A program made the position numbers and the translations under genes. 64,000 nt of DNA, from assembly GCA_023061495.1 (NCBI GenBank), contig GCA_023061495.1_3643.1; one strand, given 5' to 3'. The stretch's first letter is position 1, and every line of letters starts with the position of its first letter. The DNA comes from Escherichia coli (GTDB lineage Bacteria > Pseudomonadota > Gammaproteobacteria > Enterobacterales > Enterobacteriaceae). Positions 5,765-37,084 of the stretch are shown here, piece after piece. Below the pieces are notes generated by a model. It was not told the DNA's origin. It saw nothing but the letters and a program-made list of their open reading frames with translations, and searched no databases.

Positions 5765-6019
5765 ATGCAAATCACTTTGAAGCCAGAATGCGTTGCAAAT
5801 GACCGAGCTTTTAAAGATTGCACAATCGGTGCAATTTATGAAGCAGAGTTTTGTGAGAATCCTCTGGTAAAAGCCCTTCTGGAAGAAGGGGCACCTTTAT
5901 CACAAGAAGAACTTGATGAGTTGGAAAACTCAGCCCAATGTCTTACCTTTAAAGATGATGAAGGAGACTCTGTCTGGTGCACTGTTAATGAAGTCGTTTT
6001 TGTAAAACCTGAACATTAA
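5765..6019 (+). CDS. Hypothetical small protein (paralog of 6083-6355)
   Basis: RBS GAGGAG upstream of ATG; RAFKDCT...KDDEGDSVWCT matches neighbour. Confidence 0.55.
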   Translation: MQITLKPECVANDRAFKDCTIGAIYEAEFCENPLVKALLEEGAPLSQEELDELENSAQCLTFKDDEGDSVWCTVNEVVFVKPEH

Positions 6020-6082
6020 TACTTGACAACAGCGATAGGACCTAATACAATGGTCCTATCAAAACGAAAGGGGACCACAACA

Positions 6083-6355
6083 ATGACCAAACAATACCAA
6101 CGAATTAAAGCCAAGGTTAAGCCAGACTATCTGGAGAAGGACTCTGCTTTTCGGGACTGCACAGCTGACAAAGTTTACACAGGGGCCGTCCTGTTGAACG
6201 ATGAACTTGAAGTAGATATTCTGGGTAAAGAGGCCACTATTAAGGACGACCAAGGCGATTATGTTTGCTGCACCACACGTGAGCTAGAAATCTTAGAATA
6301 CTTCGGTGAAATCTTCACCTCTCTTGATGATTACTTAGACGACGAGGAAGCTTAA
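6083..6355 (+). CDS. Hypothetical small protein (paralog of 5765-6019)
   Basis: ATG 6083 after AAAGGGGA; SAFRDCT...KDDQGDYVCCT. Confidence 0.5.
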   Translation: MTKQYQRIKAKVKPDYLEKDSAFRDCTADKVYTGAVLLNDELEVDILGKEATIKDDQGDYVCCTTRELEILEYFGEIFTSLDDYLDDEEA

Positions 6356-29365: not shown

Positions 29366-29694
29366 TAGTCTTCCTCCAGGTTCAAAGGTCCTAAGATTTC
29401 ATATGCTAGATTAGAAGTTACCAGAGGGTCTTCTGCATCTTTAGTATTATACCATCCGTGAATAACCAGAGTCCCGCTGTGTTGCATGTCTAACTGGAAC
29501 TGCTCTGCCGTTTCCTCATCCATCTCCAAGATCTCCATGAGGTATTTGATGTTAGGGAGATATGCGGTTGTTACAGTCCCCTCTACCAGACCTTCAGGCC
29601 AACCTACATCCGGATGACAAGTAGGAACCAGAGAGGTCAGTTTAATAATGTATGCTTTTTCTGCACGAGCCTTCAGTAACGGATCAATTTTCAT
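29365..29694 (-). CDS. Hypothetical small acidic protein
   Basis: ORF track; overlapping start/stop with neighbours. Confidence 0.55.
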   Translation of the reverse strand: MKIDPLLKARAEKAYIIKLTSLVPTCHPDVGWPEGLVEGTVTTAYLPNIKYLMEILEMDEETAEQFQLDMQHSGTLVIHGWYNTKDAEDPLVTSNLAYEILGPLNLEED

Positions 29695-30044
29695 TATTCT
29701 TCCTCCTCTTCGGTGCCTGCTTCCAGTAGTAAGTTAAGAACATCTTCAGCAGAAGGTTCGTAGAACTCTTGGCCTTCGTTGTCGATGATGCGATAGTCAT
29801 CACCACGAATAATCAGAGGATCGTCATCAAAACCTTCAAGACCTTTAACAACGACAACACGATCGATTGCCATCATTGTAAGAACTTTATCGACATCTTC
29901 CTCTGCTACACCATACTGCAGCAGAATGTTTTTGGTAGGAGGAACAGCATCCACCACAACGCCGTTACCAAAACCTTCTGGAAGTTTAGCTAAAATATCT
30001 TCCGGAACCACATTCACATCAAAACCGGTAATTTCTACTTTCAT
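29694..30044 (-). CDS. Hypothetical small acidic protein (MKVEITG N-terminus, poly-E tail)
   Basis: ORF track; C-terminus ...EAGTEEEEE. Confidence 0.55.
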   Translation of the reverse strand: MKVEITGFDVNVVPEDILAKLPEGFGNGVVVDAVPPTKNILLQYGVAEEDVDKVLTMMAIDRVVVVKGLEGFDDDPLIIRGDDYRIIDNEGQEFYEPSAEDVLNLLLEAGTEEEEE

Positions 30045-30381: not shown

Positions 30382-30777
30382 TTACTGGAACAGTGCAGAT
30401 AAATTACCTTCTGGTGGGAACTTATCCGCCAAGAATGGAGTCAGAACAGTGGCCTTCTGAAGATCTGGAGTCCACTCGTTGTTCAGAACATCCCAGTAGT
30501 ACGCAATGTTGCTGTGTGGGTGCCGCATTACGAACTTTTTCCCTTCGTAGTCAGTTGAAACCTCTACAGAAGAAATAACAACAGAATCTTCAAGAGTTTC
30601 TTCATAGAAAGATCCACCCTCGAATTTCCAACGAGATGCAAGAGCCCCTGCCTTAAACGCTGCAGATAACGGACTGTCGGCAAGAACATACATTTCTTGC
30701 ACTCTGTCGCTGCGATCTTTGCTTCTTACGTTGTATACAGTATCTGAGCTATACTCAACACGGTATAGACTTACCAT
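30382..30777 (-). CDS. Hypothetical protein (paralog of 32593-32991)
   Basis: Shared HP-S...YW...W-TP block (HPHSNIAYYWDVLNNEWTP vs HPDSRVKHYWNARTKTWTP). Confidence 0.5.
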   Translation of the reverse strand: MVSLYRVEYSSDTVYNVRSKDRSDRVQEMYVLADSPLSAAFKAGALASRWKFEGGSFYEETLEDSVVISSVEVSTDYEGKKFVMRHPHSNIAYYWDVLNNEWTPDLQKATVLTPFLADKFPPEGNLSALFQ

Positions 30778-31472: not shown

Positions 31473-31742
31473 TTACTCTTCTACAATCTCATACACATCA
31501 GGGGTTACAATCAACTCTTCTCCGTTACCTGGAGCAACAAACACTACCAAGCCTTCAGGTGTGTGCTTTTTAGCCATCTCGATAACATCTTCTCGCATAG
31601 CTGGCTCCATCAGATCAAAACCTTCACCCAGAGCATCACGAACCACCTTCATGTAGTCCACTGGTTGTGCTTCAACGATCATGCCTTCAACCAGTCCGCA
31701 GTTTTTGTCTGCCAGCTCAGTTTTGAATAATTTAATTTTCAT
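31473..31742 (-). CDS. Hypothetical small acidic protein (MKIKLFK...; ...DVYEIVEE; paralog family)
   Basis: ORF track; shared terminal motifs. Confidence 0.55.
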   Translation of the reverse strand: MKIKLFKTELADKNCGLVEGMIVEAQPVDYMKVVRDALGEGFDLMEPAMREDVIEMAKKHTPEGLVVFVAPGNGEELIVTPDVYEIVEE

Positions 31743-31879
31743 TTAGAGGTCTCCTCAATTATTTGATATTAATAGCCGTAACCTAACACATTAACTACAA
31801 CTGCGATTGCAAACATAATTTCAAAGCATGCAATCTCTACATTTGGGACTAATTTCTTAATCACACCCATTGTAGCACC

Positions 31880-32197
31880 TCATTCTCCAAAGTCAATCTT
31901 TACTTTGCCTTTCCCCTTACCTTTCTTTCCACCGCATTTAGCCAGCTGACGTGCTGCAACATCTACCATACGGTCAGTTGCCTCGTAAGCATCACTGCCT
32001 TTAGCCTTGGCAATAACTTCTTTTCCAGAATTGTCAAAAATGAACGCCATAACTTCCTGATGATCATTTTCAACTTTTACACTAACACGTGCATAGTTGG
32101 CAGATGGGTGCAAACGCTCCAGCTTAGACATTTTGTGGGAAATGAAAGACACCATACCTTCAGTGATTTCTACGTTGCCAGTGATTTCAATTTGCAT
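31880..32197 (-). CDS. Ribosome hibernation/translation inhibitor homolog (HPF/RaiA/YfiA family)
   Basis: MQIEITGNVEITEGM...KLERL...YARVSVKVEN...GKEVIAKAKGSDAYEATDRMVDVAARQLAK aligns along its length with E. coli HPF as recalled (MQLNITGNNVEITEAL...YVVLKVEK...GGEIHASAEGQDMYAAIDGLIDKLARQLTK). Confidence 0.7.
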   Translation of the reverse strand: MQIEITGNVEITEGMVSFISHKMSKLERLHPSANYARVSVKVENDHQEVMAFIFDNSGKEVIAKAKGSDAYEATDRMVDVAARQLAKCGGKKGKGKGKVKIDFGE

Positions 32198-32284
32198 AAC
32201 GTGCTCCTTTTAAGGAAGAGAGAATAACAACCATCTCTCTTTGAAAACAATAATACTATAGCTGAAGCGTTGTGTCAACAGTTT

Positions 32285-32592: not shown

Positions 32593-32991
32593 TCAGTCTA
32601 GCTTTTCTTCAACAACCCCGTAGCTCGGGGCAGAGTCAAGAGCTTTTTGGTTTAAAAGTGGTGTAGCAGAATCTGCAAACGGTGTCCAAGTTTTTGTTCT
32701 GGCATTCCAGTAATGCTTCACTCTGGAATCTGGATGCACTATAACAAAAACTTTTTCACTTGTCAACACATTAATTTCTTCCACACCCTTGCTGACAATT
32801 TCTCCGTCATAGCCCCCAGTCTGGTACCCTTCGTACCAGGTTCTTGCATAGGCATAGCCAGCCTGCCAGCATGCAGCCTCCTCCGAGGTGGAGACTACGT
32901 AGAAGTCTTTCTCAAATTCTGGGATACGTCCTTGCTTTACGCTCCAAGCTCCGCGAATTTTCATTGTTACTTTGAAAAGCTTGTTCTTCAT
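32593..32991 (-). CDS. Hypothetical protein (paralog of 30382-30777)
   Basis: ATG start verified (MKNKLFK); shared block with 30382-30777. Confidence 0.5.
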   Translation of the reverse strand: MKNKLFKVTMKIRGAWSVKQGRIPEFEKDFYVVSTSEEAACWQAGYAYARTWYEGYQTGGYDGEIVSKGVEEINVLTSEKVFVIVHPDSRVKHYWNARTKTWTPFADSATPLLNQKALDSAPSYGVVEEKLD

Positions 32992-32992
32992 A

Positions 32993-33247
32993 CTACCGCT
33001 CTACAATCTCTACGTCTGTTCCTACACCGAAGGCATAGTAATGTTCTTCCCCAAAGTAATACTTGGGGACACCAGCTTTGATCAGGTCTAACCCGCGAAT
33101 AAATACCACACCGTGTGATACAGTGGAATGCTTCTGACGCACAGGATCGTTGTCAGGCAACCATTCAAAGTACACCGCAGGTACAACCTTCCCTTTAAGA
33201 AAGGATTGCCCCAAGTAGACGTTAGAATCAAGAATTTTGACCTTCAT
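32993..33247 (-). CDS. Hypothetical small protein (MKVKILDSN...; ...TDVEIVER; paralog family)
   Basis: ORF track; near-identical N-terminus to 33228-33461. Confidence 0.55.
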   Translation of the reverse strand: MKVKILDSNVYLGQSFLKGKVVPAVYFEWLPDNDPVRQKHSTVSHGVVFIRGLDLIKAGVPKYYFGEEHYYAFGVGTDVEIVER

Positions 33248-33461
33248 GATCGTCCTCCACTATCTCCACATCCTCCCCTAGGGCAAAGTTGTAGGCCCAC
33301 TGACTGTCAAAGCATTCCTGAGACGCGCCAGCGGCAATAAGATCTGCCCCTTTTATTTTTAAAAGGTCAGGATAATCTTCGTTAGGGATAGCGGTAAACA
33401 CTTTTCCAACTAAAGGCTCTTGACCAATATAGAAGTTTGAATCTAAAACTTTCACTTTCAT
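33228..33461 (-). CDS. Hypothetical small acidic protein (MKVKVLDSN...; ...EDVEIVEDD; paralog family)
   Basis: ORF track; 20-nt overlap with downstream paralog. Confidence 0.55.
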   Translation of the reverse strand: MKVKVLDSNFYIGQEPLVGKVFTAIPNEDYPDLLKIKGADLIAAGASQECFDSQWAYNFALGEDVEIVEDDHEGQNS

Positions 33462-36326: not shown

Positions 36327-36854
36327 CTACATCTCCTGGTTCAAACTGTTAAGAAAGGATACCCTGTCTTCGCTATTTTTCTCTGTGATATACCCTCCAA
36401 ACATGGAAAGAATCACATGCTTCAAGTAATCTTTTTCTGGATCGCTTAGATGATTGCGTGGCTTTATTTCCACATCATGATAGTCGTACAATCCACAATC
36501 ATGATACCCCCAGTATCGACACACCTCAATACTGATCGGGAGTTTTTTGTCACACGAAACTTTCCAACGGGTTACGTTGTTACCAGGGGATAAATCCTCG
36601 CCCACCTTCACGAATGACAGATCGTAACTCATAAACTTTTCGTACAGTTTAAGCACAAAACTCTCGACCTGTGGAGAAACACCAGCCACTAGCTGAGCGT
36701 ATCTATACTTACTTTCGATAATTTTTCGGCGCTTTGCTGTAAGGTTTATTGCAGCAATTTGACTTTCTGAGTATCTCCAAGGCTTATATATAAATGCTTT
36801 CGGGTCTTTGTCGCCATAAAAATCTTTCCAATCAACTAGCAGCATACCTGTCAC
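36327..36854 (-). CDS. Hypothetical protein
   Basis: ORF track. Confidence 0.5.
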   Translation of the reverse strand: MTGMLLVDWKDFYGDKDPKAFIYKPWRYSESQIAAINLTAKRRKIIESKYRYAQLVAGVSPQVESFVLKLYEKFMSYDLSFVKVGEDLSPGNNVTRWKVSCDKKLPISIEVCRYWGYHDCGLYDYHDVEIKPRNHLSDPEKDYLKHVILSMFGGYITEKNSEDRVSFLNSLNQEM

Positions 36855-37084
36855 TCCTCCACAACTTCAAGGCCTTTGCCGCCTCGTTCTGGTAGATTAC
36901 TTAAAGACAGGTAATACGTATAGTAAGGAGAGATCCTGCCAGACTCTGCACCTGCAGATAGTAAATCTTTTCCCTTAACCATGACAACATTATCGTTTGC
37001 AGATAGTCGTTTTGCTTCCACAATTTTACCAACGCAGTCAACCAAGGAAGGGTACCCTAAATCTGTAAGAAATTTAACTTTCAT
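36851..37084 (-). CDS. Hypothetical small protein (MKVKFLTD...; ...GLEVVEE; paralog family)
   Basis: ORF track; shared terminal motifs. Confidence 0.55.
   Translation of the reverse strand: MKVKFLTDLGYPSLVDCVGKIVEAKRLSANDNVVMVKGKDLLSAGAESGRISPYYTYYLSLSNLPERGGKGLEVVEE

Follow-up and report, generated by a model that had tools for sequence, protein, structure and literature searches.

Gene organization around the phage HPF gene

The DNA analysed here, referred to as the window, is a stretch of 64,000 nt from an assembly deposited as Escherichia coli [GenBank:GCA_023061495.1]. On its minus strand, between positions 31880 and 32197 including the stop codon, the list of open reading frames contains a gene with an ATG start, which specifies a protein of 105 aa, MQIEITGNVEITEGMVSFISHKMSKLERLHPSANYARVSVKVENDHQEVMAFIFDNSGKEVIAKAKGSDAYEATDRMVDVAARQLAKCGGKKGKGKGKVKIDFGE, related to the ribosome hibernation factor HPF. 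The gene is part of a long run of small genes located on the same strand. A Shine-Dalgarno sequence, AAGGAG, could be read 6 nt 5' of the ATG (positions 32204 to 32209, minus strand), and a ribosome-binding site is annotated at the equivalent position in the Murica record. Further upstream, a consensus scan revealed a sigma-70-type promoter consisting of TTGACA and TATTAT separated by 17 nt, which matches the consensus at 11 out of 12 positions (32250 to 32278, minus strand). This promoter is equivalent to P144 of phage rV5, whose record carries the annotation 'Sigma70-type promoter; P144' ahead of ORF144 [GenBank:DQ832317], and it is kept in 10 related genomes. A promoter-like site, TTGACA-17-AATTAT, is also located 24 nt before the start of a diverged ortholog in L003, a member of a second phage lineage (P0004) described below.

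The 5' UTR was predicted to fold into a tentative 7-bp hairpin, AGAGAGA...UCUCUCU (32217 to 32240, minus strand), and a 4-bp helix covering the Shine-Dalgarno site. A regulatory RNA at this position was considered and is not supported; the minimum free energy is -11.3 kcal/mol, but the z-score is only -1.44. One compensatory pair was detected in the hairpin across 8 genomes, and the hairpin is absent from the P0004 lineage.

From the shared start of their products, two neighbouring genes had been regarded as paralogs of the HPF gene when the window was read from its sequence only. The product of one of them (positions 29694 to 30044) does begin with MKVEITG, but homology to HPF is absent. BLASTP aligned the two proteins only over an unrelated stretch of eight residues (E = 0.17), Pfam searches with this neighbour gave no match at E <= 1, and comparisons by hhalign yielded probabilities of 0.8% for this neighbour and 0.2% in a further comparison. 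Among ten neighbours, Pfam searches revealed nothing beyond weak, sub-threshold matches to unrelated families, and no HPF paralog was detected when all open reading frames of the window were compared with each other by BLASTP. Several other neighbours start with MK[IV]K[ILV]. True paralog pairs do exist in the array of small genes, and the HPF gene stands outside all of them.

Phage origin of the window and previous records

By sequence comparison, the window is DNA of an rV5-like coliphage (Vequintavirus). The 2.5 kb surrounding the HPF gene matched 121 phage records with 90 to 98% identity, nearly all of them from Vequintavirus (rV5-like) coliphages, and the closest DNA was that of phage YP-6 (97.7% identity over 2.5 kb). 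When the protein was used in a tblastn search, 119 records were obtained. While 118 are phage genomes encoding a product with 94 to 100% identity, the remaining one is a Salmonella chromosome with its own factor, which is 42% identical.

The product is 100% identical to ORF144 of rV5 (ABI79209; DQ832317), which was deposited as 'sigma 54 modulation factor' in an annotation dating from 2006. In later records the protein is named ribosome hibernation (promoting) factor, RaiA, or S30AE, and its RefSeq name is 'ribosome-associated translation inhibitor RaiA'. Mizuno et al. (Nat Commun 2019, 10:752; PMC6375957) list the protein as phage HPF among virus-encoded ribosomal proteins, and their tree places rV5 HPF among gammaproteobacterial sequences. 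An hpf gene was also noted in five rV5-type gut isolates by Mathieu et al. 2020 (PMC6969025), and in the genome paper on phage Sharanji an S30AE gene is listed without functional data. A literature search, with most subscription journals outside its coverage, found no functional work on phage HPF beyond that of Mizuno et al. Thus, the phage HPF gene, its family assignment, and a first test of ribosome association are already known from the public record. The estimates of dN/dS, the second phage lineage, the distance from bacterial HPFs, the map of contact residues, and the conserved own promoter of the gene are added here.

Family assignment and predicted structure

Homology to HPF had been proposed for the product in the sequence-only reading, and profile searches bore it out with significant matches above the curated cut-offs. 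The only Pfam family matched was PF02482 (Ribosomal_S30AE), with 48.3 bits compared to a cut-off of 23.7 (E = 1.8e-12), and the match spans residues 3 to 88, corresponding to profile positions 1 to 83 of 88. The NCBIfam model TIGR00741 for the HPF/YfiA family was matched with 45.9 bits (cut-off 40.9). The two equivalog models gave lower values relative to their cut-offs, 55.8 bits for the E. coli-type HPF (NF007780, cut-off 125 bits) and 17.6 bits for RaiA (NF007654, cut-off 158 bits). The phage protein therefore belongs to the HPF/YfiA (S30AE) family, as a diverged representative of the short type with a single domain. By these scores it is nearer to gammaproteobacterial HPF than to RaiA, and it is an equivalog of neither.

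The similarity had also been thought to extend along the length of the protein, and a phmmer search of PDB sequences confirmed this. Residues 1 to 89 aligned with residues 1 to 89 of E. coli HPF (2rql, 4v8h, 6h4n), with E values for the E. coli HPF chains of 5e-12 to 2.5e-11 and an identity of 40 to 42%. Both stretches from which the likeness had first been noticed are contained in this alignment, MQIEITG-NVEITEG opposite MQLNITGNNVEITEA and AARQLAK opposite LARQLTK.

The structure predicted by AlphaFold2 had a mean pLDDT of 85.1, with values of 90 to 96 for the blocks up to residue 80. It comprises beta1 (residues 2-7), alpha1 (13-29), beta2 (33-43), beta3 (46-55), beta4 (60-67), and alpha2 (70-89). 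When the model was compared to PDB entries by Foldseek, the first 37 matches, which are all those with E <= 0.001, were HPF, YfiA, pY, and other hibernation factors with an S30AE domain. The best match was 4hei, which is HPF of V. cholerae, with an rmsd of 1.0 A and a TMt of 0.93. The HPF chain of an E. coli 100S ribosome, 6h4n_x, was matched with an rmsd of 1.1 A and 41% identity. The phage protein is thus predicted to have the HPF fold, and the model together with the Foldseek matches delimits an S30AE/HPF core of residues 1 to 88, encoded by positions 31934 to 32197 (minus strand).

Residues contacting rRNA

For a closer look at the core, an alignment was built from the phage protein, E. 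coli HPF, and 18 relatives from bacteria, and contact positions were taken from a study in which HPF-ribosome complexes of Gram-negative bacteria were solved by cryo-EM (bioRxiv 10.1101/2025.10.07.680626). All invariant or near-invariant columns of the family are kept in the phage protein: T12, K22, G58, A63, D69, Y71, D75, and D79.

At the contact positions, the picture was mixed. E. coli K23, K26, R83, and K87 are kept as K22, K25, R83, and K87 both in the protein of the window and in that of the P0004 lineage, and Q29 is represented by a basic residue, R28, in both. K91 is kept in the window and replaced by S91 in P0004. Three basic contacts are lost, R17 (V16 in both proteins), K80 (V80 in the window, T80 in P0004), and K89 (G89 and S89, respectively). 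Two further positions are changed, T53 to F52 in the window and R52 in P0004, and H55 to F54 in both. The basic patch on helix alpha-1, formed by K22, K25, and R28, is therefore present in both phage lineages, while the basic track on helix alpha-2 (K80, R83, K87, K89, and K91 in E. coli) is only partly kept in the window, with R83, K87, and K91 retained and K80 and K89 replaced. Additional basic residues common to both lineages are found at R37, K59, K64, and K66. When mapped onto S. aureus HPF, the phage protein has equivalents of K27, R30, and R87, and a valine in place of K84.

In the bacterial complexes, the basic patch of helix alpha-1 contacts 16S rRNA near C1496/G1497 (10.1101/2025.10.07.680626). 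In S. aureus HPF, ribosome binding is lost in a K27A/R30A/K84A/R87A quadruple mutant, while a K84A/R87A mutant retains ribosome binding and loses dimerisation (PMC4889938).

The C-terminal tail

Beyond the core, the lysine/glycine-rich tail already noticed in the sequence-only reading is present as GGKKGKGKGKVKIDFGE. It comprises residues 89 to 105, is encoded together with the stop codon by positions 31880 to 31933 (minus strand), and has a net charge of +4. In the AlphaFold2 model, helix alpha-2 ends at Gly89-Gly90 and is followed by the Lys/Gly stretch. Disorder is predicted for the tail, with pLDDT values below 50 at residues 93-100. The tail is translated, since the C-terminal peptide VKIDFGE was detected by mass spectrometry upon expression in E. 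coli (PMC6375957).

The tail is encoded by A/G-rich runs, and its frame is shifted in some isolates, resulting in proteins of 101 aa for APCEc02 and for P0003, a Logan sequence, and of 99 aa for Murica. A further variant of the tail occurs in ECP32. In the P0004 lineage the tail is different and still basic, SKSKGIDKRTAKWDY. In the tail, positive charge is conserved and sequence is not. Beyond position 88, the phage protein has 17 residues compared to 7 in E. coli HPF. The tail of YfiA heads towards the RMF site, and that of short HPF not clearly so (10.1101/2025.10.07.680626).

Selection, a second phage lineage, and distance from cellular HPFs

Over the 88-codon core, comparisons with eight Vequintavirus orthologs revealed 5 to 25 synonymous and 0 to 5 non-synonymous differences, and synonymous divergence among the orthologs reached 0.67. 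For seven orthologs, dN/dS ranged from 0.035 to 0.058; the eighth, that of rV5, showed only synonymous changes relative to the HPF coding region of the window. With a dN/dS of about 0.04, the HPF core is under strong purifying selection, and on the same basis positions 31880 to 32197 constitute a real gene and not a chance reading frame.

A second phage lineage, P0004, harbors an ortholog of 103 aa with 64 to 65% identity, which likewise resides among arrayed small genes, here on contigs of 125 to 137 kb. Saturation of synonymous sites (pS 0.81) in the comparison with this lineage contrasts with a pN of 0.22. The lineage was absent from the phage genome collection searched by tblastn.

When 1.84 billion cluster representatives were searched exhaustively by phmmer, only 22 matches were obtained at E <= 1e-3. 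Apart from P0004, the best bacterial match was 45% identical, an HPF-like sequence of enterobacterial type that diverges at its end. A recent host donor of the gene was also considered and rejected, as a word-indexed search gave only phage-type sequences and no bacterial relative among the cluster representatives exceeded 45% identity.

In one isolate, YP-6, the HPF gene contains a stop at codon 4. Either the gene is dispensable for propagation in the laboratory, or the record is erroneous.

The published test of ribosome association

In the work of Mizuno et al. (PMC6375957), E. coli NM522 expressing rV5 HPF from pBAD24 was grown to an OD600 of 1 and harvested at the end of exponential phase, and ribosomes were purified by a sucrose cushion with 0.5 M NH4Cl followed by a gradient. 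Peptides of rV5 HPF were present in the crude extract and none were found in the 70S or 100S fractions. Expression had no discernible effect on 100S ribosomes, and a loss of 100S is not reported either. As reasons for the negative result, an inadequate growth phase, a true loss of binding, or stripping by salt are offered. The part of the paper available describes neither a positive control with host HPF nor a control of RMF levels in the 100S experiment.

Washes at high salt are a standard means of freeing ribosomes from associated factors (PMC4889938). Since high salt strips such factors, the cells were from the end of exponential phase, and a control with host HPF is not described in the available text, the negative co-sedimentation result is not decisive. 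Literature statements on stripping by high salt were found for associated factors in general and not for E. coli HPF specifically. Wada's laboratory has reportedly detected HPF, YfiA, and RMF in crude ribosomes and no longer after a high-salt wash, which is unconfirmed in the literature examined.

Possible function of the phage protein

Phage copies of factors silencing ribosomes are an intriguing possible route by which viruses could manage host translation. In the sequence-only reading, a role of the protein in controlling host translation had been suggested, which is plausible. From the data described above, the phage HPF probably acts on the decoding channel of the host ribosome. Judging by the type of promoter, the gene may be transcribed early in infection by host RNA polymerase. 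The protein would bind to the 30S decoding channel of idle host ribosomes, between head and body, as cellular HPF does. Binding would be weaker, more electrostatic, and more salt-sensitive than that of host HPF, because K80 and K89 are lost and the helical basic C-terminus is exchanged for a flexible poly-Lys/Gly tail, and salt-labile binding would be in keeping with the failure to find the protein on ribosomes washed with 0.5 M NH4Cl. The protein would likely serve to park and shield ribosomes that become free as the phage takes over the host, or else act as a competitor of host HPF, RaiA, and RMF. Either way, the pool of ribosomes would be preserved and soon available again for translating phage mRNA. 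Parking or protection of ribosomes and blocking of host 100S formation are inseparable by sequence tools. An action in the decoding channel has to be weighed against the negative co-sedimentation result, the contact positions changed in both phage lineages, K80, K89, T53, H55, and R17, the distance from any cellular HPF, and the stop at codon 4 in YP-6.

A sub-case of ribosome binding, which we consider unlikely, is an anti-dimerisation factor resembling RaiA. The protein would fill the HPF/RaiA site and direct its basic tail towards the RMF/anti-Shine-Dalgarno site; 70S monomers would be kept, host 100S formation would be blocked, and the phage could make use of ribosomes in starved cells. 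The 17 residues of the tail compared to 7 in E. coli HPF and the course of the YfiA tail to the RMF site (10.1101/2025.10.07.680626) are consistent with this possibility, but the composition of the phage tail is wholly unlike that of RaiA, only its basic character is kept between the phage lineages, and the sequence as a whole is nearer to HPF (55.8 versus 17.6 bits). The lysine lost from helix alpha-2 corresponds to K84 of S. aureus HPF, and a K84A/R87A protein binds ribosomes without dimerising (PMC4889938); dimerisation in S. aureus, however, proceeds via a C-terminal domain which the phage protein lacks, and the result with the mutant may therefore not carry over. In PMC6375957, 100S ribosomes were not raised by expression of the phage protein and competition of phage HPF with host factors was proposed by the authors, yet no loss of 100S is reported.

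That the fold, which is dsRBD-like, was kept while ribosome binding was lost, the protein now targeting another RNA or protein of host or phage, we regard as quite improbable. A changed function is possible given an identity of at most 45% to any cellular HPF, and the loss of the K80, K89, T53, and H55 contacts together with the new shared basic residues R37, K59, K64, and K66 would be compatible with it. The presence of the protein in the extract and its absence from purified ribosomes (PMC6375957) could be read in the same way, but as high salt strips factors a negative result is expected even from a true binder. Moreover, purifying selection keeps family-conserved residues, including K25, R28, R83, and K87 at rRNA contacts, and nothing in the data points to another partner.

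A host-derived passenger gene, acquired by chance and useless to the phage, could account for the nonsense codon at position 4 in YP-6 and the frameshifted tails in APCEc02 and Murica, but is hardly credible for a gene with a dN/dS of about 0.04 at a synonymous divergence of up to 0.67, which occurs in 118 phage genomes and, with 64% of the residues kept despite saturated synonymous sites, in a second lineage, has its own conserved promoter, and lacks a close cellular donor.

Action on the decoding channel, the preferred reading, can be extended to a more specific proposal, which is offered tentatively and is itself doubtful. The phage protein may be a deliberately weak, salt-labile 'placeholder' of the decoding channel and not a promoter of hibernation, in other words a viral device for anti-hibernation and ribosome protection. 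Lacking K80 and K89 of helix alpha-2 and equipped with its flexible poly-Lys/Gly tail, it might prevail over host HPF, RaiA, and RMF in the competition for idle ribosomes at an early stage of infection. Formation of 100S ribosomes would be blocked, 16S rRNA would be shielded from nucleases of defence or stress responses, and the protein would be easily displaced by phage mRNA and initiation factors. The contact map, the selection estimate, the second lineage, and the reading of the published negative result could help to design a decisive experiment.

Comparison with known systems

Long HPFs, as known from S. aureus, B. subtilis, and Thermus, have an N-terminal domain homologous to the phage protein, while the dimerisation domain that follows a linker at their C-terminus, some 60 residues in length, is absent from the 105-aa phage protein. 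S30AE proteins of large enterobacterial myoviruses are also known from jumbo coliphage and Cronobacter phage HPFs (GAP32, Sharanji; PHROG 8990). The protein of the window matched PHROG 8990 with E = 1.5e-6 compared to E = 7.5e-71 for its own family, PHROG 12469, and tblastn with this protein at E <= 1e-3 detected no phage of the GAP32/Sharanji type. In the tree published in PMC6375957, GAP32 HPF groups with Firmicutes sequences. The phage HPFs of PHROG 8990 form a family distinct from HPF of the rV5 type and were acquired independently.

E. coli RaiA (YfiA, protein Y; 4v8i, 1n3g) has the same fold and presumably the same binding pocket. As in RaiA, the C-terminal extension of the phage protein exceeds that of short HPF, but it is Lys/Gly-rich and unrelated in sequence to the RaiA tail. 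In the Foldseek alignments, identity was 21 to 24% to YfiA chains compared to 41 to 42% to E. coli HPF. With the short HPF of E. coli (YhbH), the phage protein has in common a single S30AE domain of about 90 residues and the same predicted fold (rmsd 1.1 to 1.6 A), and the two share the start MQxxITG-NVEITE, KxxKLE on helix alpha-1, and DxY-A-D...ARQLxK on helix alpha-2. The helical basic C-terminus of the E. coli protein, KHKDKLKQH, is replaced in the phage protein by Gly-Gly and the flexible K/G tail. The host hpf gene is under stationary-phase control. In contrast, the phage copy is preceded by a strong sigma-70 promoter, and no sign of stationary-phase control was seen. With ORF144 of rV5 (ABI79209), finally, the amino-acid sequence is shared completely, the coding DNA differs at synonymous sites only, and both genes occupy the same genomic place, after P144 within the block of small genes.

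Naming of the HPF gene and its neighbor in public records

The HPF gene is entered as 'ATP-dependent protease La type I' in several phage records (OR062525, OR062528, OR062530, MT884008, and MT884010), and PHROG 12469, the phage protein family containing its product, carries the label 'unknown function'. Both the protease name and the family label are annotation errors or gaps and do not reflect biology. The second gene downstream of HPF, an ORF of 89 aa (31473-31742, - strand), is named 'sigma 54 modulation factor' in the GenBank records of APCEc02, nomo, and ECP32. No S30AE signal was detected in this ORF, neither by Pfam (no hit at E <= 1) nor by hhalign (probability 0.2%), and in the APCEc02 record the true HPF gene is entered as 'hypothetical protein'. 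The name looks like an off-by-one annotation slip originating in APCEc02 and then copied into later genomes.

Unexpected filing was also noted for whole genomes. Eighteen rV5-like genomes with 92-93% nucleotide identity to the window are deposited as 'Campylobacter phage' (MG0656xx, e.g. MG065662 and MG065666), 16 of them with Campylobacter jejuni given as host. Such a filing is unexpected in a coliphage genus and points to mislabelling or carry-over.

An exhaustive search of the representative library yielded, at rank 2 (E = 2.9e-9), a protein of 1160 aa with eight S30AE-like stretches (P0006). It appears to consist of HPF domains repeated in tandem.

Sites at the ends of the HPF gene

The last HPF codons contain a sequence resembling a promoter, TTGACT-16-TACAAT preceded by TG (31869-31896, - strand), just ahead of an ORF for a hydrophobic protein of 33 aa corresponding to rV5 ORF145 (31769-31870, - strand). 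A promoter at the equivalent position is likewise predicted in the Gotham record. In the 5' UTR of HPF (32205-32240, - strand), a possible 7-bp hairpin and a 4-bp helix over the Shine-Dalgarno sequence were found, but this structure is weak: the z-score of the fold is only -1.44, a single compensatory change was detected among 8 genomes, and the structure is absent from the diverged lineage, whose HPF ortholog is 64-65% identical.

Paralogs among the small genes

Several of the small genes are related to each other. Paralogous pairs are formed by 30382-30777 and 32593-32991 and by 5765-6019 and 6050-6355, and a set of three comprises 32993-33247, 33228-33461, and 36851-37084. BLASTP E values for the true paralog pairs of the array were 4e-9, 5e-16, 1e-5, and 6e-8; no Pfam family was obtained for any of the array paralogs scanned. 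An acidic C-terminus resembling [DY]xE[IV][IV]E is common to many small array proteins. The window (1-64000) contains 123 non-overlapping ORFs that are 50 aa or longer, about 80 of them on the - strand, and ARAGORN predicted no tRNA or tmRNA genes across the same region.

HPF variants among isolates

Phage YP-6, whose genome is nearest to the window at 97.7% nucleotide identity, carries TAA in place of GAA at HPF codon 4 (L012 301-345, the YP-6 locus; window equivalent 32186-32188), and the CDS start is placed at Met15 in its record. This stop codon may be natural, knocking out or truncating the gene, or may stem from an error in sequencing. Single-base indels between isolates occur in the A/G runs encoding the tail (31880-31933 in the window; loci L007, L008, and L009 of related phages), resulting in HPF products of 101 aa in APCEc02, with an identical tail in a Logan sequence (P0003), and of 99 aa in Murica. 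Asn8 is single in the window and rV5 but double in Murica, nomo, and V18; E. coli HPF has the double Asn at this position, like the latter three phages and unlike the window and rV5.
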